Below are positions 1,778-20,951 of a DNA stretch of 64,000 nucleotides, in pieces (position 1 is the first letter of the stretch; each line of letters starts with the position of its first letter). The position numbers were made by a program, and so were the translations under genes. This DNA comes from Escherichia coli (GTDB taxonomy: Bacteria; Pseudomonadota; Gammaproteobacteria; Enterobacterales; Enterobacteriaceae): the NCBI RefSeq assembly GCF_044324875.1, contig NZ_CP172185.1, one strand, 5' to 3'. Under the pieces are notes generated by a model. It worked only from the letters and a program-made list of their open reading frames with translations, had not been told where the DNA came from and searched no databases.

Positions 1778-2096
1778 GCTTTCCCCATCTTACTTAGTCT
1801 GTCAGGCGTGGTCAGTCGCACCGGACACAAAACATGATTCTGCGGTTGGCTATCGGCAAGCGTGGAGTTTAACTTGAGCATCATTAAGCACATCACAGTA
1901 ACCGCTGATCATAGCAAACCCTCTGAAGGCGGAATATCAGCAAATTCCTGGAGTTATTTCAACCTATTGACTTTTAATTTGATTTGAGGACGATTATTTA
2001 TTAAGTTACATAAATGTAAATAACATGCAATTCACATTGCCGAAAGCGTGTCCTATATCGCACAATAACCGCTGATTTCACAGCATAGATCCCACG

Positions 2097-2657
2097 ATGA
2101 GCAAATCATTACAAAAACCCACCATTCTGAATGTTGAAACTGTAGCCCGTTCCCGACTGTTTACCGTCGAAAGCGTGGATCTGGAGTTCAGCAATGGCGT
2201 GCGGCGTGTTTATGAACGAATGCGTCCAACCAACCGGGAAGCAGTGATGATTGTGCCGATTGTGGACGATCACCTGATCCTGATCCGCGAATACGCAGTG
2301 GGAACTGAATCCTACGAATTAGGTTTTTCGAAAGGATTAATTGATCCGGGTGAAAGCGTCTTCGAAGCCGCGAACCGCGAGCTAAAAGAAGAGGTGGGAT
2401 TTGGTGCGAACGATCTGACTTTTTTGAAGAAGCTCAGCATGGCACCGTCTTACTTTTCCAGCAAAATGAATATCGTGGTAGCGCAAGATCTCTACCCGGA
2501 ATCGCTGGAAGGCGATGAGCCAGAGCCGCTACCACAGGTGCGCTGGCCGCTGGCGCATATGATGGATTTGCTGGAAGACCCTGACTTCAACGAAGCGCGT
2601 AATGTCAGCGCGCTGTTCCTCGTGCGCGAATGGTTGAAAGGGCAGGGGCGGTTGTAA
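2097..2657 (+). CDS. nudE: ADP-sugar diphosphatase NudE (Nudix hydrolase)
   Basis: 186-aa ORF; Nudix-type segment RELKEEVGF; conserved position next to mrcA. Confidence 0.9.
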   Translation: MSKSLQKPTILNVETVARSRLFTVESVDLEFSNGVRRVYERMRPTNREAVMIVPIVDDHLILIREYAVGTESYELGFSKGLIDPGESVFEAANRELKEEVGFGANDLTFLKKLSMAPSYFSSKMNIVVAQDLYPESLEGDEPEPLPQVRWPLAHMMDLLEDPDFNEARNVSALFLVREWLKGQGRL

Positions 2658-2798
2658 ATGCGTGAAGTTTGCCTGATGCATAATGCTTATCAGGCCTGTG
2701 CGGCTCCTGCAATATATTGATTTTTCTAGATGTTGCTAGACGGGTAAAGTGTTCACGCCGTATCCGGTATAAACAAAGTGCACTTTGTCAGCAAACTT

Positions 2799-2823
2799 AA
2801 AAAGGCGCTGAAGCGCCTTTTTA
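2799..2823. terminator. Bidirectional rho-independent terminator between convergent nudE and mrcA
   Basis: GC hairpin aggcgc-tgaa-gcgcct flanked by an A-run upstream and a T-run downstream, immediately outside both stop codons. Confidence 0.6.
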
Positions 2824-2824
2824 A

Positions 2825-5377
2825 TCAGAACAATTCCTGTGCCTCGCCATTATCGATAATGGTCGTTCCCACCTCGTGCACCGCCTGTTGTGTCGGCTGC
2901 GTACCTTCGATGAAATACTCTTCGCGGCTGTTGCCACCATTAGCTAACTGCCCGGTGCTGCGATCGATATTCACCGTCACAATACCCGGCGGCGGCGTCA
3001 GCGGCTGCTCCGGCACACCTTCAAGAACGGCTTTCATATAAGCGTCCCATGCAGGCTGGGCACTCTTGGCACCGCCTTCGTAACCTGAGATCTGATCTTT
3101 AATCGCTCCGGAAGCCGTTGTATGACCGAGATTACGACGGTGATCATCAAAGCCAATCCAGACCGAGGTCACAACGCCCGGACCGTAACCCGAAAACCAC
3201 GCATCTTTCGAACTGTTAGTGGTACCGGTTTTCCCGCCGATATCGCGACGCTGCAAATCACGACCTGCACGCCAGCCGGTACCCTGCCAGCCTGGCTCAC
3301 CAAAGATATTGGTGTTCAAAGCACTCTTAATCAGGAATGCCAGCGGAGTGTTGATGACGTGCGGTGCGTACTCCTGCGCGCCAGTCTTCGCCACTAACGC
3401 CTGATTTGCCTGCTCCAGCTGCGGCATTGGCACAGAAACATTCTGCTGCTCGCGGGAGATAGCGACATCTTCAACATCGTTATTTTCCAGCACGTTCGAT
3501 TTCTGCGTATCACCGTAAATTACCGGAATATCGCATTCCGGGCAGGCTACTTTCGGTTTCGCTTCGAAAATCACGCCGCCCTGATCGTTTTCAATTTTGC
3601 TGATAAACCACGGGTCCACCAGGAAGCCGCCGTTCGCCATGACCGCGTAGCCGCGCGCCACCTGCATTGGGGTGAATGACGCTGAACCCAGCGCCAGCGA
3701 TTCGGTGTGGACAATGTTTTGCGCCGGGAAGCCGAAGCGTTGCAGATATTCTGCAGCGTAGTCGACGCCCATCGCCCGCATTGCGCGTACCATCACCACG
3801 TTTTTCGACTGGCCCAGTCCCTGACGTAAGCGAATTGGACCAGCATATTGTGGCGGCGAGTTTTTCGGCTGCCAGTCAGAACCGGCACCTGCGTCCCAGC
3901 GAGAAATTGGCACATCGTTCAACATACTTGCCAGCGTCAGACCTTTATCCATCGCCGCGGTGTAGAGGAACGGTTTGATGTTGGAACCCACCTGACGCAG
4001 TGCCTGGGTGGCGCGGTTAAACTTGCTCTGATTGAAATCAAAGCCACCGACCAGCGCCATAACGGCACCGTTTTGCGGATTGATCGACACCAGCGCCGAG
4101 TTCACTTCCGGCACTTGTGCCAGCCACCAAGCATCGCCAACCTGACGAACCCAGATTTGCTGACCCGTTTGCAGAACATCGGTCACTTTACGCGGCGTCG
4201 GTCCCTGCTGAGTATCCGAACGGTAAGGACGCGCCCAGCGAACGCCTTCCATACTCAATGCGACGGTCGACCCGTCCGCCAGCATCGCCGTCGCTTCCTG
4301 AGGATTGGCGCTGGTGACTGCGGCAGGTAGCAGAGGACCATAGGTCGGCAGCGCCTTCAACGTATCGGTAATCTTGTTGTTATCCCACGCCGACTCGCCC
4401 ACTTTCCACAGCACATTTGCCGGGCCGCGATAGCCGTGGCGCATGTCGTAGTCCAGCACGTTATTACGTACCGCCTGCTGTGCGGCCTGCTGCACTTTGC
4501 GGGTGATGGTGGTGTAAATGCGATAACCGTCTTCATAGGCACTTTCGCCATAACGGTTATACATCTCCTGGCGCACCATTTCGCTCAGGTACGGCGCAGA
4601 GAAAGCAATCTCCGGCGCGTGATAGTTAGCGTTAATCGCCTCAGTGCGTGTCTGATCGAACTGTTGCTGGGTGATATACCCTTCATCCAGCATCCGCGAC
4701 AGTACGACGTTACGCCGCGCGACGGCACGATCCATTGAGTAGAGCGGATTAAAGGTGGAAGGCGCTTTCGGCAGCCCGGCTATCACCGCCATTTCGTTCA
4801 GCGTCAGTTGGTCGACCGTTTTACCGAAATAGACTTGTGCCGCAGCACCGACACCATAGGCGCGGTAACCGAGGTAAATCTTGTTCAGATAAAGCTCGAG
4901 GATCTCGTCTTTCGTCAGCAATTGTTCAATGCGAATCGCGAGGAAGACTTCCTTAATCTTACGCATCAGCGTGCGTTCTGGACTGAGGAAGAAGTTTCTC
5001 GCCAGCTGCTGGGTAATGGTACTCGCCCCTTGTGACGCGTGGCCGGAGAACAGCGCCACACTTGCCGCACGGAAGATCCCCACCGGGTCAACGCCGTGAT
5101 GCTCGTAGAAGCGGCTGTCTTCCGTCGCGATAAAGGCTTTCACCATCTCCGGCGGGATTTGATCCAACGTAACCGGAATACGACGTTTCTCACCGTATTG
5201 AGCGATCAGCTCGCCATCGGCGCTGTAAATCTGCATCGGAATTTGCAGGCGAACATCTTTTAATGTCGCCACATCCGGCAGTTGTGGCTCGATGTAGCGG
5301 TATAGGCCATAAATCGAGCCTGCTCCCAGCAGAATGCAACAGACTGCAAGGATCAAAAAATACTTTACGAACTTCAC
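2825..5377 (-). CDS. mrcA: Penicillin-binding protein 1A (bifunctional glycosyltransferase/transpeptidase)
   Basis: 858-aa ORF in track; likely true start is the GTG at 5377 (VKFVKYFLIL...), giving 850 aa; N-terminal transmembrane anchor, glycosyltransferase and transpeptidase regions recognisable. Confidence 0.93.
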   Translation of the reverse strand: MKFVKYFLILAVCCILLGAGSIYGLYRYIEPQLPDVATLKDVRLQIPMQIYSADGELIAQYGEKRRIPVTLDQIPPEMVKAFIATEDSRFYEHHGVDPVGIFRAASVALFSGHASQGASTITQQLARNFFLSPERTLMRKIKEVFLAIRIEQLLTKDEILELYLNKIYLGYRAYGVGAAAQVYFGKTVDQLTLNEMAVIAGLPKAPSTFNPLYSMDRAVARRNVVLSRMLDEGYITQQQFDQTRTEAINANYHAPEIAFSAPYLSEMVRQEMYNRYGESAYEDGYRIYTTITRKVQQAAQQAVRNNVLDYDMRHGYRGPANVLWKVGESAWDNNKITDTLKALPTYGPLLPAAVTSANPQEATAMLADGSTVALSMEGVRWARPYRSDTQQGPTPRKVTDVLQTGQQIWVRQVGDAWWLAQVPEVNSALVSINPQNGAVMALVGGFDFNQSKFNRATQALRQVGSNIKPFLYTAAMDKGLTLASMLNDVPISRWDAGAGSDWQPKNSPPQYAGPIRLRQGLGQSKNVVMVRAMRAMGVDYAAEYLQRFGFPAQNIVHTESLALGSASFTPMQVARGYAVMANGGFLVDPWFISKIENDQGGVIFEAKPKVACPECDIPVIYGDTQKSNVLENNDVEDVAISREQQNVSVPMPQLEQANQALVAKTGAQEYAPHVINTPLAFLIKSALNTNIFGEPGWQGTGWRAGRDLQRRDIGGKTGTTNSSKDAWFSGYGPGVVTSVWIGFDDHRRNLGHTTASGAIKDQISGYEGGAKSAQPAWDAYMKAVLEGVPEQPLTPPPGIVTVNIDRSTGQLANGGNSREEYFIEGTQPTQQAVHEVGTTIIDNGEAQELF

Positions 5378-5496
5378 TGGAAATTTCCCATTTAGTTTCA
5401 TTTGGGCAGTTTATAAACAAACGCGCGGTAGTATAAAGGCAAGCCAGACGCATTGATATACCCGTCAGAGTGACGGGTGATAAGGAGATCATCACA

Positions 5497-6276
5497 ATGG
5501 CATTTAAGATCTGGCAAATTGGTTTGCATTTACAACAGCAAGAAGCGGTAGCGGTTGCTATCGTGCGGGGCACAAAAGAATGTTTTTTGCAACGCTGGTG
5601 GCGGTTGCCGCTGGAGAACGACATAATCAAAGATGGGCGGATTGTTGATGCGCAGCGGCTGGCTAACACGTTGTTACCGTGGAGTCGCGAACTGCCGCAG
5701 CGTCATCACATTATGTTGGCGTTTCCCGCCAGTCGCACATTACAGCGGTCATTTCCACGCCCGTCGATGTCCCTTGGTGAGCGGGAGCAAACGGCCTGGC
5801 TGTCCGGGACGATGGCCCGCGAGCTGGATATGGATCCGGACTCCCTGCGCTTCGATTACAGCGAAGACTCACTCAGTCCCGCCTATAACGTGACTACCGC
5901 GCAAAGCAAAGAGTTGGCAACGCTGCTTACTCTGGCAGAAAGGTTGCGTGTTCATGTTAGCGCGATCACCCCGGATGCCAGTGCATTACAGCGATTCCTG
6001 CCTTTTTTACCTTCTCATCAGCAATGTCTGGCCTGGCGTGATAACGAACAGTGGCTGTGGGCGACGCGCTATCGCTGGGGGCGCAAACTGGCGGTGGGGA
6101 TAACTAGCGCGAAGGAGCTGGCGGCAGCGTTATCCGTTGATCCCGAAAGCGTCGCGATATGTGGCGAAGGCGGATTTGATCCCTGGGAGGCCGTTTCTGT
6201 TCGTCAGCCGCCGCTACCGCCGCCAGGTGGAGACTTTGCCATCGCGCTGGGGCTGGCGCTTGGGAAGGCGTACTGA
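5497..6276 (+). CDS. hofM: HofM (PilM-like type IV pilus / DNA-uptake assembly protein)
   Basis: Track ORF 5470-6276; internal ATG at 5497 (MAFKIWQIGL...) matches the usual N-terminus; first gene of hofMNOPQ. Confidence 0.85.
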   Translation: MAFKIWQIGLHLQQQEAVAVAIVRGTKECFLQRWWRLPLENDIIKDGRIVDAQRLANTLLPWSRELPQRHHIMLAFPASRTLQRSFPRPSMSLGEREQTAWLSGTMARELDMDPDSLRFDYSEDSLSPAYNVTTAQSKELATLLTLAERLRVHVSAITPDASALQRFLPFLPSHQQCLAWRDNEQWLWATRYRWGRKLAVGITSAKELAAALSVDPESVAICGEGGFDPWEAVSVRQPPLPPPGGDFAIALGLALGKAY

Positions 6277-6815
6277 TGAACCCGCCAATTAATTTTTTGC
6301 CCTGGCGACAGCAACGCCGGACCGCTTTTCTTCGTTTCTGGTTGCTGATGTTCGTTGCGCCTCTGCTGCTGGCTGTCGGGATAACGCTAATACTGCGTCT
6401 GACAAGCAACGCCGAAGCACGCGTAGACACCGTTTTGCTTCAGGCGGAACAACAACTCGCCCGCAGCTTACAGATAACGAAACCACGTTTGCTGGAACGC
6501 CAGCAGTTACGCGAACAGCGTTTGCAAAGGCAGCTCCAGCGACAATTTACCCGTGACTGGCAATCTGCGCTGGAAGCACTGGCGGCGCTTTTACCCGAAC
6601 ACGCCTGGCTGACAACGATAAGCTGGCAGCAGGGAACGCTGGAGATCAAGGGGCTGACAACAAGCATTACCGCGTTAAACGCACTAGAAACGTCACTCCG
6701 CCAGGATGCTTCTTTTCATCTCAATCAGCGGGGGGCCACGCAGCAGGATACGCAGGGACGCTGGCAATTTGAGTATCAGTTAACAAGAAAGGTTAGCGAT
6801 GGACATGCTCTTTGA
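6276..6815 (+). CDS. hofN: HofN (PilN-like)
   Basis: 179-aa ORF with N-terminal transmembrane helix; ATGA start/stop overlap with hofM. Confidence 0.85.
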   Translation: MNPPINFLPWRQQRRTAFLRFWLLMFVAPLLLAVGITLILRLTSNAEARVDTVLLQAEQQLARSLQITKPRLLERQQLREQRLQRQLQRQFTRDWQSALEALAALLPEHAWLTTISWQQGTLEIKGLTTSITALNALETSLRQDASFHLNQRGATQQDTQGRWQFEYQLTRKVSDGHAL

Positions 6816-7239
6816 CTGGTGGTTCGTCGCATCACCCCGCCTCCGCCAGCTTTGCTGGGCAGTCTGGTTGCTGGTGTTAGTTACGCTCATTTTTCTGTCA
6901 TCGACACACCAGGAAGAGAGCGACGCATTAATTCGACTACGGGCGAGTCATCACCAGCAGTGGGCCGCACTGTATCGCCTGGTAGACACCACTCCCTTCA
7001 GCGAGGAAAAAACGCTGCCCTTTTCGCCACTGGATTTTCAGTTATCCGGCACGCAACTGGTTTACTGGCATCCATCCGCGCAGGGAGGTGAGTTGGCGTT
7101 GAAAACGCTGTGGGAAGCAGTGCCATCGGCATTTACACGGCTGGCAGAGCGCAACGTCAGCGTGAGCCGTTTTTCGTTAAGCGTGGAAGGTGATGACCTT
7201 TTGTTCACGCTACAACTGGAGACGCCGCATGAGGGTTAA
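6799..7239 (+). CDS. hofO: HofO (PilO-like)
   Basis: 146-aa ORF overlapping the hofN end; transmembrane N-terminus. Confidence 0.82.
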   Translation: MDMLFDWWFVASPRLRQLCWAVWLLVLVTLIFLSSTHQEESDALIRLRASHHQQWAALYRLVDTTPFSEEKTLPFSPLDFQLSGTQLVYWHPSAQGGELALKTLWEAVPSAFTRLAERNVSVSRFSLSVEGDDLLFTLQLETPHEG

Positions 7240-7633
7240 ACGCTGGTTGTTGGCAGGTATTGCATTGTGCCTTTTAACCGGTATGCGTGACCCTTTTAAA
7301 CCGCCGGAAGATCTATGCCGGATTAGCGAACTTAGCCAGTGGCGCTATCAGGGGATAGTAGGGCGAGGCGAGCGCATCATCGGTGTAATAAAAGACGGGC
7401 AAAAGAAATGGCGACGGGTGCAGCAAAACGATGTGCTGGAAAACGGTTGGACAATTTTACAGCTGACGCCAGACGCACTAACGCTGGGAACCGGGACAAA
7501 CTGCGAACCGCCACACTGGTTGTGGCAACGGCAAGGAGATACAAATGAAGCAATGGATAGCCGCACTACTGTTGATGCTTATACCCGGCGTACAGGCGGC
7601 AAAGCCGCAAAAAGTGACGCTGATGGTGGATGA
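7229..7633 (+). CDS. hofP: HofP (PilP-like lipoprotein)
   Basis: Track ORF 7190-7633; ATG at 7229 gives MRVKRWLLAGIALCLLTGM, a lipoprotein-type signal with cysteine. Confidence 0.8.
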   Translation: MRVKRWLLAGIALCLLTGMRDPFKPPEDLCRISELSQWRYQGIVGRGERIIGVIKDGQKKWRRVQQNDVLENGWTILQLTPDALTLGTGTNCEPPHWLWQRQGDTNEAMDSRTTVDAYTRRTGGKAAKSDADGG

Positions 7634-8783
7634 CGTTCCGGTAGCTCAGGTGTTGCAGGCGCTGGCTGAACAGGAGAAGTTGAACCTGGTCGTGTCGCCA
7701 GACGTCAGCGGTACGGTGTCGTTACATCTAACAGATGTTCCCTGGAAGCAGGCACTACAAACTGTAGTAAAAAGCGCCGGACTGATAACGCGGCAGGAAG
7801 GCAACATTCTCTCGGTGCATTCCGTTGCCTGGCAGAATGACAATATCGCCCGTCAGGAGGCGGAGCAGGCGCGGGCGCAGGCAAATCTGCCGCTGGAAAA
7901 TCGCAATATTACTCTGCAATACGCCGACGCCGGAGAGCTGGCGAAAGCGGGGGAGAAGCTACTGAGTGCCAAAGGGAGTATGACCGTCGATAAACGCACC
8001 AATCGCCTTTTGCTGCGAGATAACAAAGCGGCGTTAAGCGCGCTTGAACAGTGGGTAGCGCAAATGGATCTGCCGGTCGGGCAGGTTGAGCTGTCGGCGC
8101 ATATTGTCACCATTAATGAAAAAAGTTTGCGTGAGTTAGGCGTGAAATGGACGTTGGCTGATGCGCAACAAGCTGGTGGCGTTGGGCAAGTCACCACGCT
8201 TGGCAGCGACCTCTCCGTAGCGACGGCGACAACGCATGTCGGTTTTAACATTGGACGCATCAACGGACGTTTACTGGATCTTGAGCTTTCCGCGCTCGAA
8301 CAAAAACAGCAGCTGGATATTATCGCCAGTCCGCGTCTGCTTGCCTCACATCTTCAGCCTGCCAGCATTAAACAGGGGAGCGAAATTCCATATCAGGTTT
8401 CCAGCGGGGAAAGTGGCGCGACGTCGGTGGAATTTAAAGAGGCCGTCCTGGGGATGGAAGTTACGCCCACGGTGTTACAAAAAGGTCGCATCCGGCTGAA
8501 ATTACACATCAGCCAGAACGTTCCGGGGCAGGTGCTACAGCAGGCCGATGGCGAAGTGTTGGCGATTGATAAGCAGGAGATCGAAACGCAGGTCGAGGTC
8601 AAAAGCGGAGAAACGTTGGCGCTGGGCGGCATTTTTACCCGTAAAAATAAATCGGGTCAGGATAGCGTACCGTTGCTTGGCGACATTCCCTGGTTCGGGC
8701 AATTATTTCGTCATGACGGAAAAGAAGATGAACGACGCGAGTTAGTGGTGTTTATCACGCCACGACTGGTTTCCAGTGAGTAA
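7545..8783 (+). CDS. hofQ: HofQ secretin (DNA-uptake / type IV pilus outer-membrane channel)
   Basis: 412-aa ORF with signal peptide and secretin C-terminal domain (..VPLLGDIPWFGQLFR..). Confidence 0.9.
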   Translation: MKQWIAALLLMLIPGVQAAKPQKVTLMVDDVPVAQVLQALAEQEKLNLVVSPDVSGTVSLHLTDVPWKQALQTVVKSAGLITRQEGNILSVHSVAWQNDNIARQEAEQARAQANLPLENRNITLQYADAGELAKAGEKLLSAKGSMTVDKRTNRLLLRDNKAALSALEQWVAQMDLPVGQVELSAHIVTINEKSLRELGVKWTLADAQQAGGVGQVTTLGSDLSVATATTHVGFNIGRINGRLLDLELSALEQKQQLDIIASPRLLASHLQPASIKQGSEIPYQVSSGESGATSVEFKEAVLGMEVTPTVLQKGRIRLKLHISQNVPGQVLQQADGEVLAIDKQEIETQVEVKSGETLALGGIFTRKNKSGQDSVPLLGDIPWFGQLFRHDGKEDERRELVVFITPRLVSSE

Positions 8784-9183
8784 ACAGCCGTAAAAGCGGT
8801 AATGTTTTTACGCTGAACATGTTTCATCTATTTGACGCGCGCAGGTATTTAGCATACAAGGAGTACCGATTTGAGAGTTGGTGCTCTTCGCTGCCTGCGT
8901 TCCATGATGATGATTTATCATTCAGGCGGCATTTTGCTGTCTTTTTTACGCTAATCTTACCCGGTGATTTATCGCCAGAGCGGTGGTAGCAAGGCAGCGC
9001 GCTTGCAGCGACCAGATATGCAGAGGGATGGGTGATTTATTCAGTTGCCAAACCCGCTGGAGTATTGAGATAATTTTCAGTCTGACTCTCGCAATATCTT
9101 ATGAGGTTTCAGTTCATGTCCTGCGGCGCTCTCTGAGCGAAGCGGGTTTATCATTAACGAATAGTCTTAGTAGTACCGAAAAA

Positions 9184-9705
9184 ATGGCAGAGAAACGCAA
9201 TATCTTTCTGGTTGGGCCTATGGGTGCCGGAAAAAGCACTATTGGGCGCCAGTTAGCTCAACAACTCAATATGGAATTTTACGATTCCGATCAAGAGATT
9301 GAGAAACGAACCGGAGCTGATGTGGGCTGGGTTTTCGATTTAGAAGGCGAAGAAGGCTTCCGCGATCGCGAAGAAAAGGTCATCAATGAGTTGACCGAGA
9401 AACAGGGTATTGTGCTGGCTACTGGCGGCGGCTCTGTGAAATCCCGCGAAACGCGTAACCGTCTTTCCGCACGTGGCGTTGTCGTTTATCTTGAAACGAC
9501 CATCGAAAAGCAACTTGCACGCACGCAGCGTGATAAAAAACGCCCGTTGCTGCACGTTGAAACACCGCCGCGTGAAGTTCTGGAAGCGTTGGCCAATGAA
9601 CGCAATCCGCTGTATGAAGAGATTGCCGACGTGACCATTCGTACTGATGATCAAAGCGCTAAAGTGGTCGCAAACCAGATTATTCACATGCTGGAAAGCA
9701 ACTAA
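9184..9705 (+). CDS. aroK: Shikimate kinase I
   Basis: Track ORF 8983-9705 is an upstream extension; ATG at 9184 gives [23 protein letters not shown] (Walker A), 173 aa. Confidence 0.93.
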
Positions 9706-9761
9706 TTCTGGCTTTATATACACTCGTCTGCGGGTACAGTAATTAAGGTGGATGTCGCGTT

Positions 9762-10850
9762 ATGGAGAGGATTGTCGTTACTCTCGGGGAACGTAGTTAC
9801 CCAATTACCATCGCATCTGGTTTGTTTAATGAACCAGCTTCATTCTTACCGCTGAAATCGGGCGAGCAGGTCATGTTGGTTACCAACGAAACCCTGGCTC
9901 CTCTGTATCTCGATAAGGTCCGCGGCGTACTTGAACAGGCGGGTGTTAACGTCGATAGCGTTATCCTCCCTGACGGCGAGCAGTATAAAAGCCTGGCTGT
10001 ACTCGATACCGTCTTTACGGCGTTGTTACAAAAGCCGCATGGTCGCGATACTACGCTGGTGGCGCTTGGCGGCGGCGTAGTGGGCGATCTGACCGGCTTT
10101 GCGGCGGCGAGTTATCAGCGCGGTGTACGTTTCATTCAAGTCCCGACGACGTTGCTGTCGCAGGTCGATTCCTCCGTTGGCGGCAAAACTGCGGTCAACC
10201 ATCCCCTCGGTAAAAACATGATTGGCGCGTTCTACCAGCCTGCTTCAGTGGTGGTGGATCTCGACTGTCTGAAAACGCTTCCCCCGCGTGAGTTAGCGTC
10301 GGGGCTGGCAGAAGTCATCAAATACGGCATTATTCTTGACGGTGCGTTTTTCAACTGGCTGGAAGAGAATCTGGATGCGTTGTTGCGTCTGGACGGTCCG
10401 GCAATGGCGTACTGTATTCGCCGTTGTTGTGAACTGAAGGCAGAAGTTGTCGCCGCCGACGAGCGCGAAACCGGGTTACGTGCTTTACTGAATCTGGGAC
10501 ATACCTTTGGTCATGCCATTGAAGCTGAAATGGGGTATGGCAATTGGTTACACGGTGAAGCGATCGCTGCGGGTATGGTGATGGCGGCGCGGACGTCGCA
10601 ACGTCTCGGGCAGTTTAGTTCTGCCGAAACGCAGCGTATTATAACCCTGCTCACGCGGGCTGGGTTACCGGTCAATGGGCCGCGCGAAATGTCTGCGCAG
10701 GCGTATTTACCGCACATGCTGCGTGACAAGAAAGTCCTTGCGGGAGAGATGCGCTTAATTCTTCCGTTGGCAATTGGTAAGAGTGAAGTTCGCAGCGGCG
10801 TTTCGCACGAGCTTGTTCTTAACGCCATTGCCGATTGTCAATCAGCGTAA
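9762..10850 (+). CDS. aroB: 3-dehydroquinate synthase
   Basis: 362-aa ORF; immediately downstream of aroK as in the aroKB-damX-dam operon. Confidence 0.93.
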
Positions 10851-10941
10851 CAACAAGAAAGGTCAGGCCGCTTATCAAGCGGTCTATTAGCTTCAGGTTA
10901 ATTGCAACGTGGTAAGCATTAACCTTTTAGTGGGGTGTTAA

Positions 10942-12228
10942 ATGGATGAATTCAAACCAGAAGACGAGCTGAAACCCGATCCCAGCGATCGTCGTACTGG
11001 TCGTTCTCGTCAATCTTCTGAACGTTCTGAGCGTACTGAACGTGGCGAACCGCAGATCAATTTTGATGATATTGAACTTGATGACACTGACGATCGCCGT
11101 CCGACTCGTGCGCAAAAAGAGCGCAATGAGGAACCGGAACTCGAAGAAGAAATTGACGAATCCGAAGATGAAACCGTGGATGAAGAGCGCGTAGAGCGTC
11201 GTCCGCGTAAGCGCAAAAAAGCAGCCAGTAAACCCGCTTCTCGTCAGTATATGATGATGGGCGTCGGCATTCTGGTTCTCCTGCTGTTGATTATCGGTAT
11301 CGGTTCTGCGCTAAAAGCCCCCTCGACCTCTTCCAGCGATCAAACCGCGTCTGGCGAGAAGAGTATTGATCTTGCTGGCAATGCGACCGATCAGGCGAAT
11401 GGCGTGCAGCCAGCACCGGGAACCACGTCTGCGGAAAATACTCAGCAGGATGTATCTCTGCCGCCGATCTCTTCTACGCCGACTCAAGGGCAAACCCCGG
11501 CGGCAACGGATGGTCAACAACGTGTTGAAGTGCAGGGTGACCTGAACAATGCGCTGACCCAGCCACAAAATCAGCAACAGTTGAACAATGTGGCGGTCAA
11601 TTCCACGTTGCCGACTGAACCCGCGACGGTCGCGCCTGTTCGCAATGGCAATGCATCGCGTGACACGGCGAAAACGCAAACCGCTGAACGTCCGGCCACC
11701 ACGCGTCCAGCTCGTCAGCAGGCGGTGATTGAACCGAAAAAACCGCAAGCAACCGTGAAAACGGAACCGAAGCCGGTAGCTCAGACGCCGAAGCGTATTG
11801 AACCAGCTGCTCCTGTGGCGAGCGCGAAGGCACCGGCTGCGACCTCTACGCCAGCACCAAAAGAGACCGCAACTACGGCTCCAGTACAGACGGCATCCCC
11901 GGCGCAAACCACGGCAACACCAGCCGCTGGAGGGAAGACCGCAGGTAATGTTGGTTCGTTGAAATCGGCACCGTCCAGCCATTACACTCTGCAGCTGAGC
12001 AGTTCCTCTAACTACGACAACCTGAACGGTTGGGCGAAGAAAGAGAATCTGAAAAACTACGTTGTCTATGAAACGACGCGTAATGGTCAGCCGTGGTATG
12101 TCCTGGTTTCTGGCGTGTACGCTTCGAAAGAAGAGGCGAAAAAAGCGGTATCTACATTGCCAGCAGATGTCCAGGCCAAAAACCCGTGGGCGAAACCGCT
12201 GCGTCAGGTACAGGCCGATCTGAAGTAA
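10942..12228 (+). CDS. damX: DamX cell-division protein (SPOR domain)
   Basis: 428-aa ORF; acidic N-terminus, one transmembrane helix, long Q/T/P/A-rich linker, C-terminal SPOR-like domain. Confidence 0.9.
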
Positions 12229-12334
12229 TCAAGGTTATCTCCCGCAATGGTTTATCATCGCGGGAGTTGCCTGAAGCGCTGGATGCTGTCGGAGCTTTCT
12301 CCACAGCCGGAGAAGGTGTAATTAGTTAGTCAGC

Positions 12335-13171
12335 ATGAAGAAAAATCGCGCTTTTTTGAAGTGGGCAGGGGGCAAGTATCCCCTGCTTGATGATATTAAA
12401 CGGCATTTGCCCAAGGGCGAATGTCTGGTTGAGCCTTTTGTAGGTGCCGGGTCGGTGTTTCTCAACACCGACTTTTCTCGTTATATCCTTGCCGATATCA
12501 ATAGCGACCTGATCAGTCTCTATAACATTGTGAAGATGCGTACTGATGAGTACGTACAGGCCGCACGCGAGCTGTTTGTTCCCGAAACAAATTGCGCCGA
12601 GGTTTACTATCAGTTCCGCGAAGAGTTCAACAAAAGCCAGGATCCGTTCCGTCGGGCGGTACTGTTTTTATATTTGAACCGCTACGGTTACAACGGCCTG
12701 TGTCGTTACAATCTGCGCGGTGAGTTTAACGTGCCGTTTGGCCGCTACAAAAAACCCTATTTCCCGGAAGCAGAGTTGTATCACTTCGCTGAAAAAGCGC
12801 AGAATGCCTTTTTCTATTGTGAGTCTTACGCCGATAGCATGGCGCGCGCAGATGATGCATCCGTCGTCTATTGCGATCCGCCTTATGCGCCGCTGTCTGC
12901 GACTGCCAACTTTACGGCGTATCACACAAACAGTTTTACGCTTGAACAACAAGCGCATCTGGCGGAGATCGCCGAAGGTCTGGTTGATCGCCATATTCCA
13001 GTGCTGATCTCCAATCACGATACGATGTTAACGCGTGAGTGGTATCAGCGCGCAAAATTGCATGTCGTCAAAGTTCGACGCAGTATAAGCAGCAACGGCG
13101 GCACACGTAAAAAGGTGGACGAACTGCTGGCTTTGTACAAACCAGGAGTCGTTTCACCCGCGAAAAAATAA
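12335..13171 (+). CDS. dam: DNA adenine methyltransferase (GATC N6-adenine)
   Basis: 278-aa ORF with the DPPY catalytic motif (CDPPYAP) and AdoMet-binding N-terminus. Confidence 0.95.
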
Positions 13172-13188
13172 TTCTCAAGGAGAAGCGG

Positions 13189-13866
13189 ATGAAACAGTAT
13201 TTGATTGCCCCCTCAATTCTGTCGGCTGATTTTGCCCGCCTGGGTGAAGATACCGCAAAAGCCCTGGCAGCTGGCGCTGATGTCGTGCATTTTGACGTCA
13301 TGGATAACCACTATGTTCCCAATCTGACGATTGGGCCAATGGTGCTGAAATCCTTGCGTAACTACGGCATTACCGCCCCTATCGACGTACACCTGATGGT
13401 GAAACCGGTCGATCGCATTGTGCCTGATTTCGCTGCCGCTGGTGCCAGCATCATTACCTTTCATCCAGAAGCCTCCGAGCATGTTGACCGCACGCTGCAA
13501 CTGATTAAAGAAAATGGCTGTAAAGCGGGTCTGGTATTTAACCCGGCGACACCTCTGAGCTATCTGGATTACGTGATGGACAAACTGGATGTGATCCTGC
13601 TGATGTCCGTCAACCCAGGTTTCGGCGGTCAGTCTTTCATTCCGCAAACACTGGATAAACTGCGCGAAGTACGTCGTCGTATCGACGAGTCTGGCTTTGA
13701 CATTCGTCTGGAAGTGGACGGTGGCGTGAAGGTGAACAACATTGGCGAAATCGCTGCGGCGGGCGCAGATATGTTCGTCGCCGGTTCGGCAATCTTCGAC
13801 CAGCCAGACTACAAAAAAGTCATTGATGAAATGCGCAGTGAACTGGCAAAGGTAAGTCATGAATAA
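13189..13866 (+). CDS. rpe: Ribulose-phosphate 3-epimerase
   Basis: 225-aa ORF, TIM-barrel epimerase; operon context. Confidence 0.93.
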
Positions 13867-14617
13867 GTTTGAAGATATTCGCGGCGTCGCTTTTGATCTC
13901 GATGGTACGCTGGTGGACAGTGCTCCTGGCTTGGCTACCGCAGTAGATATGGCGCTGTATGCGCTGGAGTTGCCCGTCGCAGGTGAAGAACGCGTTATAA
14001 CCTGGATTGGTAACGGCGCAGATGTTCTGATGGAGCGCGCATTGACCTGGGCGCGTCAGGAACGTGCGACTCTGCGTAAAACAATGGGTAAACCGCCCGT
14101 TGATGACGACATTCCGGCAGAAGAACAAGTACGTATTCTGCGTAAACTATTCGATCGCTACTATGGCGAGGTTGCCGAAGAGGGGACGTTTTTGTTCCCG
14201 CACGTTGCCGATACGCTGGGCGCATTGCAGGCTAAAGGCCTGCCGTTGGGCCTGGTCACCAACAAACCGACGCCGTTCGTCGCGCCGCTGCTGGAAGCCT
14301 TAGATATCGCTAAATACTTCAGCGTGGTGATTGGTGGTGATGATGTGCAAAACAAAAAACCGCATCCGGACCCGCTGTTACTGGTGGCTGAGCGGATGGG
14401 AATTGCTCCACAACAGATGCTGTTTGTTGGCGACTCACGCAATGATATTCAGGCAGCAAAAGCGGCAGGTTGCCCATCAGTTGGCTTAACCTACGGATAT
14501 AACTACGGCGAGGCTATCGATCTCAGCCAGCCTGATGTAATTTATCAGTCTATAAATGACCTTCTGCCCGCATTAGGGCTTCCGCATAGCGAAAATCAGG
14601 AATCGAAAAATGACTAA
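13859..14617 (+). CDS. gph: Phosphoglycolate phosphatase (HAD family)
   Basis: 252-aa ORF; HAD motif [11 protein letters not shown]; overlaps the rpe end by 8 nt. Confidence 0.9.
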
Positions 14618-15614
14618 GCCCATCGTTTTTAGTGGCGCACAGCCCTCAGGTGAATTGACCATTGGTAACTACATGGGTGCGCTGCGTCAGTGGGTAAACA
14701 TGCAGGATGACTACCATTGCATTTACTGTATCGTTGACCAACACGCGATCACCGTGCGCCAGGATGCACAGAAGCTGCGTAAAGCGACGCTGGATACGCT
14801 GGCCTTGTATCTGGCTTGTGGTATCGATCCTGAGAAAAGCACCATTTTTGTTCAGTCCCACGTACCAGAACATGCGCAGTTAGGCTGGGCACTGAACTGC
14901 TATACCTACTTCGGCGAACTGAGCCGCATGACGCAGTTTAAAGATAAATCTGCGCGTTATGCCGAGAACATCAATGCTGGTCTGTTTGACTATCCGGTGC
15001 TGATGGCAGCGGACATCCTGCTGTATCAAACTAATCTGGTACCGGTGGGTGAAGACCAGAAACAGCACCTGGAACTGAGCCGCGATATCGCCCAGCGTTT
15101 TAACGCGCTGTATGGCGAGATCTTTAAAGTGCCGGAGCCGTTTATTCCGAAATCTGGCGCGCGCGTAATGTCGCTGCTGGAGCCGACCAAAAAGATGTCC
15201 AAGTCTGACGATAACCGCAATAACGTTATCGGCCTGCTGGAAGATCCGAAATCGGTGGTGAAGAAAATCAAACGCGCGGTCACCGACTCCGACGAGCCGC
15301 CGGTAGTTCGCTACGATGTGCAGAACAAAGCGGGCGTTTCCAACCTGCTGGATATCCTTTCTGCGGTAACGGGCCAGAGCATCCCGGAACTGGAAAAACA
15401 GTTCGAAGGCAAGATGTATGGTCATCTGAAAGGCGAAGTGGCTGATGCCGTTTCCGGTATGCTGACTGAATTGCAGGAACGCTATCACCGTTTCCGCAAT
15501 GACGAAGCCTTCCTGCAACAGGTGATGAAAGATGGCGCGGAAAAAGCCAGCGCACACGCTTCCCGTACGCTAAAAGCGGTGTACGAAGCGATTGGTTTTG
15601 TGGCGAAGCCGTAA
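14610..15614 (+). CDS. trpS: Tryptophanyl-tRNA synthetase
   Basis: 334-aa ORF; class I signature KMSKS present; overlaps the gph end. Confidence 0.95.
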
Positions 15615-15630
15615 TTTAACATTAATGCCA

Positions 15631-15656
15631 AAAACCGGGGAAACCCGGTTTTTTTA
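15631..15656 (+). terminator. Rho-independent terminator of the dam-trpS operon
   Basis: aaaaccgggg-aaa-cccggttttttt hairpin plus T-run directly after the trpS stop. Confidence 0.75.
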
Positions 15657-15725
15657 TCCTCTTTTTGTAATAATCCGAAAAAATGTGAAGCGCCTCGCCG
15701 TTTCCACATCTCGCAGTTGCCACTT

Positions 15726-15745
15726 ATCTTCATTTTTATGAAGAT
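15726..15745. promoter_or_regulatory. Perfect inverted repeat (atcttcat-tttt-atgaagat) 30 bp upstream of yhfZ; candidate operator
   Basis: Exact 8-bp inverted repeat with 4-bp spacer in an AT-rich promoter region; binding protein unknown. Confidence 0.3.
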
Positions 15746-15774
15746 ATAAATATTCATTTTATTGAAAATTTACT

Positions 15775-16680
15775 ATGCGTCGAACGTTTATCAAAAAAGA
15801 AGGCGTCGTCATCACGACACTGGCCCGTTATTTGTTGGGTGAAAAGTGCGGTAATCGACTGAAAACCATAGATGAGCTGGCAACTGAATGCCGTTCATCC
15901 GTTGGCCTGACGCAGGCCGCGTTGAAAACGCTGGAATCAAGCGGAGCGATACGGATTGAACGCCGTGGGCGCAATGGCAGTTATCTGGTCGAGATGGATA
16001 ACAAAGCATTGCTGACTCATGTGGATATCAACAACGTGGTATGTGCGATGCCCTTGCCCTATACCCGTTTGTACGAAGGCCTGGCGAGCGGATTGAAAGC
16101 CCAGTTCGATGGCATTCCTTTTTACTATGCGCATATGCGCGGCGCGGATATTCGCGTGGAGTGTTTACTTAACGGCGTGTATGACATGGCGGTTGTTTCC
16201 CGACTGGCGGCGGAAAGTTATCTCACGCAAAAAGGCTTATGCCTCGCGCTGGAGTTGGGGCCGCACACCTACGTTGGCGAGCACCAGTTGATTTGCCGTA
16301 AAGGCGAGTCCGCAAACGTGAAGCGCGTGGGGCTGGATAACCGTTCGGCGGATCAGAAAATCATGACCGATGTCTTTTTTGGCGATAGTGATGTGGAACG
16401 TGTCGATCTCTCTTATCACGAGAGTTTACAACGCATTGTTAAAGGCGATGTTGATGCGGTGATCTGGAACGTGGTGGCGGAAAACGAACTGACCATGCTG
16501 GGATTAGAAGCGACGCCGCTCACAGACGATCCGCGATTTTTACAGGCCACCGAAGCCGTGATCCTGACGCGAGTCGATGATTACCCAATGCAACAATTGC
16601 TGCGTGCAGTTGTTGATAAACAGGCCCTGCTTGCCCATCAACAACGAGTGGTCAGTGGGGAACAGGAACCCAGTTATTAA
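15775..16680 (+). CDS. yhfZ: YhfZ, uncharacterised protein (putative regulator) heading the yhf cluster
   Basis: 301-aa ORF; conserved position after trpS. Confidence 0.8.
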   Translation: MRRTFIKKEGVVITTLARYLLGEKCGNRLKTIDELATECRSSVGLTQAALKTLESSGAIRIERRGRNGSYLVEMDNKALLTHVDINNVVCAMPLPYTRLYEGLASGLKAQFDGIPFYYAHMRGADIRVECLLNGVYDMAVVSRLAAESYLTQKGLCLALELGPHTYVGEHQLICRKGESANVKRVGLDNRSADQKIMTDVFFGDSDVERVDLSYHESLQRIVKGDVDAVIWNVVAENELTMLGLEATPLTDDPRFLQATEAVILTRVDDYPMQQLLRAVVDKQALLAHQQRVVSGEQEPSY

Positions 16681-16696
16681 ACGAAAGGCATCTGAA

Positions 16697-16807
16697 ATGG
16701 AAACCAGACTCAACCTGCTTTGCGATGCAGGCGTTATTGATAAGGACATCTGCAAAGGCATGATGCAGGTCGTCAACGTACTGGAAACTGAGTGTCATCT
16801 ACCGGTG
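16697..16807 (+). pseudogene. yhfY: yhfY (PRD-domain protein) 5' fragment, codons 1-37, interrupted by the IS insertion
   Basis: ATG at 16697 gives METRLNLLCDAGVIDKDICKGMMQVVNVLETECHLPV, then the frame runs into IS sequence at 16808. Confidence 0.75.
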
Positions 16808-16906
16808 TGCGTATTCCGCTCTATTCGATCACGGATTGGCATCGAAGTCCGATCAGCGATTCGCATCCATTCGATCAACCGGGAACTTAACTTTTTCTAC
16901 CGCTTT

Positions 16907-17662
16907 TTAACGCGTTTTTTCGCTGCTTTCCACTACCGGGGGATTTTTCCTCAGTGACTCTCCCTGAAGGACCACTCGGTGTGAGTTATGTACCAGTCTG
17001 TCCAGGATGGCATCTGCTGTTGTTGGGTTCTCCATCAGACCATGCCATTTATCTACCGGGAACTGGCTTACCACTATCGTGCTGCTTTGTCCGTAACGAT
17101 CCTCTATGAGCTCCAGAAGGTCATTACACTGGGCGTTACTTAACTGTTCCAGCCCCAGATCGTCCAGGATTAGAACCTGTATTTTTTGCAACTGTTTCAG
17201 ATATTTCAGCCAGCTGCCATCAACACGTCCCTGAGCCAGTTGTTCCAGTAATCGCCCGGTTCTACAGTACCGGACGCTGTGTTTCTGTCGACATGCCTGT
17301 TCGCCCAGCGCATTGGCTATCCAGCTCTTGCCACATCCTGTCGGACCGGTTATCAGCAGGTTTTTCCTGTGGGTTATGTAGTGGCCGTTCAGCAGTTCTC
17401 TCATCTGTTCAGCCCGCAGACCTCTTGAGGCCGGATAGCGCAGCCCTTCCGGTGTTGCCTGGTATTTCAGGCCGGCATTTTTTCTCAACCGTGCCACACG
17501 GCTGTTTTCCCTGCTCAGAAGCTCGTCATCAACCAGCAGCGTCAGCCTTTCCTCGAACGACAGTTCGTCGTAGGTCTGAGGCGTTTCCCGCTGCCGTATC
17601 AGGCTCCCGGCCATCGCCGGGAGTTTCAGTTGGGTCAGTTTGTTTAACAGGTTATCACTCAT
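16907..17662 (-). CDS. istB: IstB helper ATPase (AAA+, DnaC-like) of the IS21-family element
   Basis: Track ORF is extended; likely start ATG at 17662 (MSDNLLNKL...); Walker A GPTGCGKSW and Walker B LILDDLG. Confidence 0.85.
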   Translation of the reverse strand: MSDNLLNKLTQLKLPAMAGSLIRQRETPQTYDELSFEERLTLLVDDELLSRENSRVARLRKNAGLKYQATPEGLRYPASRGLRAEQMRELLNGHYITHRKNLLITGPTGCGKSWIANALGEQACRQKHSVRYCRTGRLLEQLAQGRVDGSWLKYLKQLQKIQVLILDDLGLEQLSNAQCNDLLELIEDRYGQSSTIVVSQFPVDKWHGLMENPTTADAILDRLVHNSHRVVLQGESLRKNPPVVESSEKTR

Positions 17663-17678
17663 ACTGTTGTTCCTTCTG

Positions 17679-19214
17679 TCAGTGGTAGTAGCCCGGACCA
17701 CGCAGGTTTTCATGCTCTGAAGCATATGCCGGATGTTGTTCGCCCTGGCGGGATAATGGAAGCTCCAGGTTCTCCCGATGGTGACGCAGCAGATTGTCGA
17801 TAAAGCGTCTGTCAGGGGCGTTATAGTGCAGGGCAACGTAACAGGCCTTTTCCAGCCGTTCCGGGCCGTATTTTTTCTGAAGTGCCAGCAGCCCCAGAAC
17901 TGCACGATAAGCCAGTTCCGGATGGGGTTTTGCCTTCAGCATGGATTCAACCACCCGGCCTGTGGACGGGCCCGTACGTTTTCCCTGCTCGATCAGGCGT
18001 TCCGGTGTCCATGTCCCGTGCTGCCGGTGGCGCTCTGGCATGTGAAGCGGATTGGTTGTGTGTTTATATTCATGTGTGCTGCGCGGATGTTGCGCCACAC
18101 ACTGCCCCTTGTGCCAGAGCTGTACCACCGACTGCCCCGCCTTCAGTGACAGACGCTGACCGACCAGTTCGTGTGGAACGGAGTACCAGTGACGGGCATA
18201 TTCAACGTGGTAGTCAGGGCCAACCTTCACAGCTTTGTATTCCGTGTATTCATAAGGTGCCAGAGGCAGCGGAGAGAGTGCTGGCGCATCCAGTATGCGG
18301 AAGCGTTCTGCACGGGTTTGATTGCCGTACCCCTTCATTGGCCGGTTATTCATGTCTGTCAGTAACTCCCTAAGGCGCGCATTCAGCGCCCTGAGCGTGT
18401 GGAAGGTTTCATTACGGATGCGGGCAAGAAGCCATCGTTCAACGATGAGGACGCCGTTTTCTGCTTTTGGTTTATCTTTAGGTTTGCGTGGTCGGGCCGG
18501 GATGATAACCGTGCCATAGTGCTCAGCCAGTGCCTGATAACTGTCGTTGATGACAGGCTCATATCGATCGGCCTTTTTCACTGCGCTTCTGAGGTTATCG
18601 GGGATGAGCAGCTTCGGTACGCCGCCCAGGAAGGTCAGGCAACGGCTGTGGGCATTTAACCATGACATCATGTCCTGACCTTCGCACGCTTCAACGTAGG
18701 TATAGTTGGACGCCCCCATTACGGCCACGAAGATTGCCACGCGGCGTATCTCACCGGTGTCCGGATTAATAACAGGAACCGTAGGACCACAGAAGTCGAT
18801 AAAAAGCTTTTCGCCGGCACGATGCTCCTGGCGCATGGAGAGACGTCGCGTTTTTTTCCACTCCCGGTAGCAACGGCAGAAGTGCGAGTATCCCATCGCT
18901 TTGTTACCCGCCTGTGCCTTGTATTCCATCCACAACAGTTGCCGCGTCACACCTGGTTTTCTCATTTCCGTATCGAAGTACAACATGTCAGGCATTACAA
19001 GCTCTGATGCAAAGGTGTCTTTGGGCGGAAAAATGAGTTTCTCCAGCGTGTCATGGGATATATCAGCAGGTAATGGCCATGACAGAGAAGAGGCTTTGAA
19101 GCGGGCAAGAACCTCAAAAACGGTTGAGGCGCTGATGTGTAACGTCAGTCCGATACAACGGTTAGTCAGCTTCTTGTCGAACTTGAGCTGAAGGATCTTA
19201 AAACAGGTTTCCAT
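17679..19214 (-). CDS. istA: IstA transposase (DDE integrase core with N-terminal HTH) of the IS21-family element
   Basis: Track ORF 17679-19325; likely start ATG at 19214 (METCFKILQL...); stop is 16 nt upstream of istB. Confidence 0.85.
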   Translation of the reverse strand: METCFKILQLKFDKKLTNRCIGLTLHISASTVFEVLARFKASSLSWPLPADISHDTLEKLIFPPKDTFASELVMPDMLYFDTEMRKPGVTRQLLWMEYKAQAGNKAMGYSHFCRCYREWKKTRRLSMRQEHRAGEKLFIDFCGPTVPVINPDTGEIRRVAIFVAVMGASNYTYVEACEGQDMMSWLNAHSRCLTFLGGVPKLLIPDNLRSAVKKADRYEPVINDSYQALAEHYGTVIIPARPRKPKDKPKAENGVLIVERWLLARIRNETFHTLRALNARLRELLTDMNNRPMKGYGNQTRAERFRILDAPALSPLPLAPYEYTEYKAVKVGPDYHVEYARHWYSVPHELVGQRLSLKAGQSVVQLWHKGQCVAQHPRSTHEYKHTTNPLHMPERHRQHGTWTPERLIEQGKRTGPSTGRVVESMLKAKPHPELAYRAVLGLLALQKKYGPERLEKACYVALHYNAPDRRFIDNLLRHHRENLELPLSRQGEQHPAYASEHENLRGPGYYH

Positions 19215-19318
19215 AGTGCTCCTGGATTTTCTCTTTCTGGACATTGACGTCTCCACTGGTTTAAACACGGCAATGGAGACTGTGGTGAAAAGAGTTAATT
19301 CCCGGAGTGACTGGCAGG

Positions 19319-19440
19319 ATGCCAATCAATGATCGGAAGCATGCCAAATCGTGATCGATTGTGATGCCAAACTGTGATCGGAGATGGATGCCAAATCATG
19401 ATCGATTCGAATGCCAAACTGCGATCGATTCAGATGCCAT
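19319..19440. repeat. Six tandem direct repeats (period 22-24 bp, core ATGCCAAA..GATCG) at the istA-proximal IS end
   Basis: Copies start at 19319, 19341, 19364, 19388, 19411 and 19434; inverted copies of the motif occur at the other end (16825-16880). Typical of the multi-repeat termini of IS21-family elements. Confidence 0.7.
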
Positions 19441-19446
19441 TTTGCA

Positions 19447-19704
19447 CCGGTGCGCAGCGAGCAAGGAATGATGGCGATGACACATATGGCGAGCGCACTG
19501 ATGCGCAGTCGCCGTGGTGAAGAAATAGAGCCGCTGGACGCCGAATTGCTGGCAGAACTGGCGCAATCCAGCCACTGGCAAGCCGTTGTGCAATTGCATC
19601 AGGTATTGTTGAAGGAATTTGCACTGGAAGTTAACTCGTGTGAAGAAGGCTATTTGCTGGCCAACCTTTATGGATTATGGATGGCCGCGAACGAAGAGGC
19701 CTGA
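19447..19704 (+). pseudogene. yhfY: yhfY 3' fragment (duplicated codons 36-37 then codons 38-120), downstream of the IS
   Basis: Frame PVRSEQGMMAMTHMASALMRSRRGEEIEPLD...ANEEA continues the N-terminal fragment once the IS and one duplication copy are removed. Confidence 0.75.
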
Positions 19705-19787
19705 AGCTCACTACAAATCCACGTCGCATATCTTAAATATTCAAAAAAATGAATATTTGATTCAAGGAACAGAAACGAGGCAACAAG

Positions 19788-20951
19788 ATGTTTGTAGAAG
19801 CATTGAAACGCCAGAACCCGGCGCTGATTTCCGCCGCACTAAACCTGTGGCAAAAGGGCAAGATCGCCCCGGACAGCTGGGTGATCGACGTGGATCAGAT
19901 ACTGGAAAACGGTAAGCGGCTGATTGAGACGGCGCGGCTTTACGGCATTGAACTGTATCTGATGACCAAGCAGTTTGGTCGTAATCCGTGGCTGGCGGAA
20001 AAATTGCTGGCATTAGGCTACAGCGGCATTGTGGCGGTGGATTACAAAGAGGCGCGAGTCATGCGCCGCGCCGGTTTGCCGGTGGCGCATCAGGGGCATC
20101 TGGTACAAATCCCTTGTCATCAGGTTGCTGACGCCGTTGCACAGGGAACCGACGTCATCACCGTGTTTACCCTTGCCAAAGCGCGGGAAGTGTCTGCGGC
20201 AGCGGTGAAAGCGGGGCGGGTCCAGTCTGTGCTGCTCAAAGTTTATAGCGACGATGATTTTCTTTATCCGGGGCAGGAGAGCGGTTTTGCGCGACATTCG
20301 TTGCAGGAAATTGTCGCTGAAATCCAAAAATTGCCAGGACTCCATTTAGCGGGGCTAACTCATTTCCCTTGCCTGCTTTGGGATGAGGCTGCCGGGAAAG
20401 TTTTGCCGACACCGAATCTTCACACGCTGATACAGGCACGGGAGCAACTGGCGAAATCTGGTATTGCGATTGAGCAACTGAACGCACCTTCTGCGACCAG
20501 CTGCACTTCGCTGCCATTGCTGGCGGAATACGGTGTGACTCATGCCGAACCCGGTCATGCGCTGATGGGCACTATTCCGGCAAACCAGCAGGGCGATCAG
20601 CCTGAACGTATCGCGATGCTCTGGTTAAGTGAAATCTCCCATCATTTCCGTGGCGACAGCTACTGCTACGGCGGCGGTTACTACCGTCGTGGTCATGCGC
20701 AACATGCGCTGGTGTTTACGCCAGAAAATCAAAAGATTACTGAAACCAATCTCAAAACTGTGGATGACAGCAGTATCGACTACACCCTGCCGCTGGCAGG
20801 CGAGTTTCCGGTAAGCAGTGCAGTAGTGCTCTGTTTTCGCACGCAGATTTTTGTCACCCGTAGCGATGTGGTGCTGGTGTCTGGTATTCATCGTGGCGAA
20901 CCGGAAATCGTCGGTCGTTATGACAGCCTCGGCAACCCTCTGGAGGCGTAA
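19788..20951 (+). CDS. yhfX: YhfX, PLP-dependent alanine-racemase-fold protein
   Basis: 387-aa ORF; family assignment from recall of the K-12 cluster. Confidence 0.85.
   Translation: MFVEALKRQNPALISAALNLWQKGKIAPDSWVIDVDQILENGKRLIETARLYGIELYLMTKQFGRNPWLAEKLLALGYSGIVAVDYKEARVMRRAGLPVAHQGHLVQIPCHQVADAVAQGTDVITVFTLAKAREVSAAAVKAGRVQSVLLKVYSDDDFLYPGQESGFARHSLQEIVAEIQKLPGLHLAGLTHFPCLLWDEAAGKVLPTPNLHTLIQAREQLAKSGIAIEQLNAPSATSCTSLPLLAEYGVTHAEPGHALMGTIPANQQGDQPERIAMLWLSEISHHFRGDSYCYGGGYYRRGHAQHALVFTPENQKITETNLKTVDDSSIDYTLPLAGEFPVSSAVVLCFRTQIFVTRSDVVLVSGIHRGEPEIVGRYDSLGNPLEA

Follow-up and report, generated by a model that had tools for sequence, protein, structure and literature searches.

Gene content of the locus

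The window, which is the whole stretch of 64,000 nucleotides of Escherichia coli DNA that was analysed, contains on its plus strand the gene yhfZ (15775..16680, +), an intact upstream neighbour encoding a GntR-family regulator, followed by a small gene, yhfY, that is cut into two halves, and by yhfX (19788..20951, +), the first intact gene downstream. YhfZ matched the model NF041241 (YhfZ_full) at 373.9 bits (cut-off 260) and is annotated in the collinear reference chromosome, that of E. coli CH4796; the YhfX protein does not differ from that of lineages in which the site is empty. The location of yhfY between yhfZ and yhfX matches the annotated synteny. Between its two halves, within 16697-19704, lie two large ORFs on the minus strand, antisense to both yhfZ and yhfX, so that the opposite orientation described in an earlier note on this DNA was recovered here.

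The larger of these ORFs, istA (17679..19214, −; annotated as WP_045147483.1), encodes a DDE transposase of 511 aa that scored 284.7 bits against the NCBIfam IS21-family transposase model NF033546 (cut-off 160) and contains the Pfam domains rve (integrase core) and Mu-transpos_C_2 (Mu-transposase C-terminal barrel). Its residues D140, D206 and E252 correspond in an alignment to D124, D187 and E233 of IS5376 IstA, residues at which mutation leaves that protein with almost no integration activity (PMC10122671). The istA stop codon is separated by a 16-nt gap from istB (16907..17662, −), which is on the same strand and encodes a 251-aa AAA+ helper ATPase, with coordinates that match the annotation (WP_001282653.1). 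IstB scored 257.8 bits against the NCBIfam helper ATPase model NF038214 (cut-off 200), carries a Walker A motif (GPTGCGKS, from residue 106) and a Walker B motif (LILDDLG, at residue 164), and is homologous to the IS5376 IstB structures 8q3w, 8q4d and 5bq5. The starts of both genes, which are those that RefSeq assigns to identical copies, each have a Shine-Dalgarno sequence; in the case of istA the ATG is preceded at 6 nt by an AGGAG ribosome-binding site. With both family models matched above their cut-offs, rve and Mu-transpos_C_2 in place and the triad aligned, the identification of an IS21-family istA-istB element, first made from the sequence in the earlier note, is upheld.

Ends of the element and target-site duplication

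The ends of the element were fixed using seven other full-length copies, fetched from different E. coli genomes. All seven begin with TGCGTATTCC and end with CCATTTTGCA, whereas their flanks are unrelated from site to site, and the termini TGCG... and ...TGCA are kept in all eight copies. At the seven other sites, direct repeats of 4-7 bp hold only when the final A is counted as belonging to the element. Because all seven copies end in ...TTTTGCA, because the duplications need that A and because a 3′-CA is the signature of IS21-family donor ends (PMC10122671), we placed the right end at 19446. The insertion sequence is then complete at 16808..19446 (−), measures 2639 bp from 5′-TG to CA-3′ and shows 100% full-length identity to other copies.

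The target-site duplication that accompanies these ends is CCGGTG. Its left copy (16802..16807) corresponds to nucleotides 106-111 of yhfY, that is to codons 36-37 (Pro-Val), and its right copy (19447..19452) was delimited by the comparison of ends together with the collinear reference, on which the left flank runs up to position 8000 and the right flank, when started at 19447 of the window, already aligns from 7995, an overlap of 6 bp. Intact yhfY contains CCGGTG a single time, both in the CH4796 allele and in that of a near-identical lineage described below. IS21-family elements generate target-site duplications of 4-8 bp. The 6 bp found at yhfY lie inside this range, as do the 4-7 bp found at the seven other sites. 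The earlier note had placed the element at 16808-19445 and had proposed a 7-bp duplication, accggtg. Its left end stands, but the right end is 19446, the element has 2639 and not 2638 bp, and the real duplication is the 6-bp CCGGTG, the extra A being the element's last base; the combination of a 7-bp duplication and a 2638-bp element is ruled out by the ends of the seven other copies. That position 16801 also carries an A, matching this last base, is a coincidence.

The tips of the element form an imperfect inverted repeat. The istA-proximal end (IRL, 19319..19446) comprises the ...TTTTGCA tip and five copies of a 17-nt repeat, CGATCnnnnnTTGGCAT, located between 19319 and 19427 with a spacing of 22-24 bp, and the istB-distal end (IRR, 16808..16866) comprises the TG tip and two copies of the same repeat (16826-16842 and 16850-16866). 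Several repeats within each terminal inverted repeat, bound by IstA, are a hallmark of the IS21 family (PMC10122671). The element therefore combines the features by which the family is recognised, namely an IstA that matches the family model and retains an intact triad, an IstB encoded downstream on the same strand, TG...CA ends with repeats, and a short target-site duplication.

Reconstruction of yhfY and the empty site

The 5′ fragment of yhfY (16697..16807, +), delimited by translation and by alignment to intact yhfY, holds codons 1-37 and continues into the insertion sequence as a hybrid ORF of 86 aa, with its stop codon at 16955-16957. The 3′ fragment (19453..19704, +) holds the remaining 83 codons, 38-120, and the stop codon, and has neither a start codon nor a ribosome-binding site. 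Deletion of 16808-19452, that is of the insertion sequence and one CCGGTG, yields an ORF of 363 nt and 120 codons, which aligns without gaps to CH4796 yhfY and differs from it at 13 nucleotides and four amino acids (116/120 aa match). A closer relative was located through an exact-match search with the YhfX sequence of the window, which led to the assembly GCA_044682655.1 and to a Logan assembly. Across the 9171 bases aligned on the two sides of the insertion, the contigs of this near-identical lineage differ from the window at two or three positions (two for GCA_044682655.1). In the same lineage, yhfT is split into two ORFs.

Both GCA_044682655.1 and the Logan contigs have an empty site, with a single CCGGTG and an intact YhfY that is identical to our reconstruction (120/120 aa). 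The continuous 120-codon frame that the earlier note had obtained by excising 16808-19452 thus exists as a natural allele, and alignment of both flanks to uninterrupted yhfY, either that of CH4796 or that of the near-identical lineage, restores a single frame. Since a lineage with only 2-3 differences in 9171 bases keeps the empty site, the insertion is recent. The break in yhfY falls between codons 37 and 38, and full-length YhfY certainly cannot be made; the gene is inactivated, as had been expected, and the insertion constitutes a natural null allele of yhfY. The description of YhfY as a PRD protein fared less well. Its similarity to PRD proteins is weak, and the matches to Pfam PRD (i-E 0.006, 17.3 bits) and to TIGR03582, 'PRD domain protein EF_0829/AHA_3910' (27.6 bits against a cut-off of 69.35), are both below threshold; PGAP labels the product a hypothetical protein. 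The PRD label is accordingly best treated as a lead rather than as demonstrated membership.

A simple insertion in a single lineage

Comparison of the window with 68.5 kb of CH4796 by BLAST gave two blocks, 1-16807 and 19446-64000, with 99.1% identity and three 1-nt gaps. On this alignment the insertion sequence is the sole structural difference between the 64-kb window and CH4796, and the collinearity of the remainder supports the earlier view of a simple insertion, with no rearrangement. A repeat-motif search and the CH4796 comparison revealed no other insertion sequence or rearrangement in the window, and scans for Rfam families and for tRNAs gave no matches there. It could be proposed that the segment is a dead relic, or that it belongs to something larger, such as a mobile or composite element, or to a rearrangement, given that IS21-family elements are able to form tandem and composite structures (established knowledge; PMC10122671); nothing specific to this locus points that way. 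A relic would not be expected to keep two full-length ORFs with their catalytic and ATPase motifs preserved, nor to be 100% identical to elements present in many copies elsewhere. Relative to the reference, nothing but the 2639 bp and a 6-bp duplication has been added, both flanks are collinear, and no further copy of the element turned up in the window when it was searched for the repeat motif. We regard this whole set of readings as extremely improbable; the collinearity of the 64-kb window with CH4796, together with the empty site of the near-identical lineage, effectively rules out both a rearrangement and any composite or larger element.

The distribution of the insertion was examined in 5426 complete E. 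coli genomes. The empty site aligned end to end in 5066 of them, and the yhfZ-yhfX query sequence was missing in 348. Neither of the two junctions between the insertion sequence and yhfY was found with at least 80% query coverage at any place in these 5426 genomes, in agreement with the earlier note, which had described K-12 as lacking an insertion here. The exact 32-nt left junction was also absent from a one-genome-per-species bacterial collection and from JGI metagenome contigs, and exact-sequence look-up of the 86-aa hybrid ORF and of a 78-aa truncated YhfY C-terminus returned no record. The insertion is private to one lineage, and, being absent from all 5426 complete genomes, it can serve as a marker of that lineage. 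Since the best match of the window among complete E. coli genomes is only ~99%, the lineage is poorly represented among complete genomes; draft assemblies do hold it. With regard to a possible Shigella origin, the 64-kb window gave no positive sign (no other insertion sequence or rearrangement), a result that does not settle the origin.

That the junction occurs in no other public sequence searched is also what would be expected if an assembler had misplaced a copy of the insertion sequence into yhfY. An artefact of this kind would, however, have had to produce a perfect 6-bp duplication of a single-copy sequence together with exact TG...CA ends, which is the signature of transposition, and IS insertions confined to a single lineage are frequent in this species. 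We consider an assembly error scarcely credible.

Possible consequences for yhfX-yhfS

Because the ist genes are antisense to yhfZ...yhfS, transcripts that start at yhfZ would have to traverse some 2.6 kb of IS sequence, antisense and untranslated, before reaching yhfX. In Rho-dependent polarity, an untranslated stretch of this kind should lower read-through. Judging from the antisense placement, the insertion probably lowers read-through expression of yhfX-yhfW-php-yhfU-yhfT-yhfS. Terminator-like hairpins were in mild excess around the insertion (10, against a shuffled expectation of 5.1 ± 2.2), which is too weak an excess to decide on polarity. It is also possible that yhfX is transcribed from a promoter of its own within the 83-bp spacer that separates it from yhfY; a simple scan for sigma-70 consensus sequences around the insertion, which is a weak scan, gave no promoter-like site in this spacer and none directed towards yhfX.

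If the removal of YhfY and the insulation of yhfX-yhfS from yhfZ-driven transcription did rewire this uncharacterised catabolic cluster, the insertion would not be neutral, and the strain would offer a natural knockout for finding the role of YhfY and of the cluster; we think this very unlikely. Very unlikely, too, is the view that the insertion is adaptive or regulatory, in the sense that loss of YhfY, or transcription out of the insertion sequence, was selected for altered yhfX-yhfS expression. Many insertion sequences do carry promoters able to change the expression of their neighbours (PMC10122671), and YhfY is weakly PRD-like and adjoins a regulator. Against selection stands the confinement of the insertion to a single lineage. 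The ist genes, moreover, are directed away from yhfX, and the weak scan placed no promoter-like site towards that gene. The absence of the yhfZ-yhfX query from 348 of the 5426 genomes suggests that the region is dispensable, and the split of yhfT in the near-identical lineage is consistent with neutral decay.

Spread of the element and origin of the insertion

The 2639-bp sequence is identical (100%, full length) to copies carried by many E. coli chromosomes and plasmids. Among the complete E. coli genomes, 225 of 5426 contain a match that spans 80% or more of the element, and up to 23 places per genome match it when partial and diverged matches are counted. A near-full copy is also present in 232 plasmid records; the plasmids with matches are mostly conjugative, and Escherichia is their main source, although some derive from Salmonella, Shigella and Klebsiella. 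The exact variant occurs mostly in E. coli, including many poultry isolates, and on conjugative plasmids. Its full-length, 100% identical copies lie at many unrelated sites, and each copy that was sampled has its own duplication of 4-7 bp. From its sequence integrity and its copy number, the element is apparently competent for transposition.

We conclude that, almost certainly, one copy of a known and apparently active IS21-family element, probably an isoform of ISSso4, transposed into yhfY on an ordinary E. coli chromosome; nothing in the evidence contradicts the insertion itself. By analogy with what is described for the family (PMC10122671, PMC11208146), an IstA tetramer would bring the two ends of the element into synapsis, and the AAA+ protein IstB would capture the target DNA and activate the transposase. 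Staggered strand transfer followed by gap repair would then have duplicated the 6-bp CCGGTG. The event is an ordinary one, in which a known and widespread insertion sequence entered a gene of uncharacterised function. The element circulates among Enterobacteriaceae, on chromosomes as well as on conjugative plasmids. Outside strain typing, the importance of this insertion is small.

Comparison with ISSso4 and IS5376

A copy of the element on a Shigella sonnei plasmid, in which both genes are labelled as ISSso4 family, is 96.3% identical to ours over the full 2639 bp. It shares the istA-istB layout and the length class (2638 bp, against 2639 bp here) but differs by ~4% at the nucleotide level. 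By the ISfinder convention, elements with at least 95% nucleotide identity are isoforms. Judged from the S. sonnei plasmid copy rather than from the ISfinder entry, the element is thus probably an isoform of ISSso4. In PGAP annotation, IstB on identical copies is called 'IS21-like element ISSso4 family helper ATPase', whereas IstA of this variant bears the generic name 'IS21 family transposase'. ISSso4 has been listed among the insertion sequences of S. sonnei 53G (PMC7373316) and also occurs on the E. coli plasmid pCT (PMC6361801).

The resemblance to IS5376 and IS21 is one of architecture. Like our element, they have a DDE transposase IstA with an rve domain, a Mu-transposase-C β-barrel and a conserved triad, an AAA+ IstB, a terminal CA dinucleotide and multiple repeats per terminal inverted repeat. 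In sequence, IS5376 is only distantly similar (E ~1e-13 for IstA and ~1e-24 for IstB), and its IstA has ~400 aa, whereas the 511-aa protein encoded here is ~110 residues longer. The ends differ as well, in that prototypical members of the IS21 family have two repeats per end (L1/L2 and R1/R2; PMC10122671), whereas the element in yhfY has five at its istA-proximal end.

The source lineage and presence of the yhf cluster

When the window (1-64000) was compared with 5426 complete E. coli genomes, the top identity was only ~98.9-99.1%; the draft assembly GCA_044682655.1 matched it at 99.97%. The source lineage of the window seems to be unrepresented among the complete RefSeq E. coli genomes. The window begins at mrcA, passes crp and reaches the str and S10 ribosomal-protein operons; neither an Rfam scan at the gathering threshold nor a tRNA scan returned any match across the whole 64 kb (1-64000).

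Not every E. coli carries the yhfZ-yhfY-yhfX part of the cluster. Using the empty-site query (window 16300-19960), we found no match at all to this segment in 348 of the 5426 complete genomes, and a partial match only in a further 12. In a Logan contig from a near-identical lineage with an empty site (L012, SRR31740797; ~99.97% identity to the window), yhfT (7642-8946, homologous to window ~23429-24733) was called not as a single 434-aa ORF but as two, 276 and 151 aa long. Such a split would be a second, independent disruption of the yhfZ-yhfS genes, a hint that this lineage can dispense with the cluster or is losing it to decay.

Spread and structure of the IS21-family element

Many of the 100% identical copies of the element among the best-ranked matches (H1-H30, complete E. 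coli genomes, and H81-H92, plasmids) came from chicken or other poultry E. coli, and these matches also included Salmonella and Klebsiella plasmids carrying copies at 99.7-99.8%, some of chicken origin. Taken together, these copies suggest that the ISSso4 variant found in the window (16808-19446) has spread recently in the poultry reservoir.

A Pfam domain search gave no match for the C-terminal ~120 residues (~390-511) of its transposase IstA (window 17679-19214, minus strand), which is ~110 residues longer than the IstA of IS5376. The element also differs from prototypical IS21 members at its istA-proximal end (19319-19446), where we counted five internal repeats, whereas the prototypical members carry two at each end (PMC10122671).
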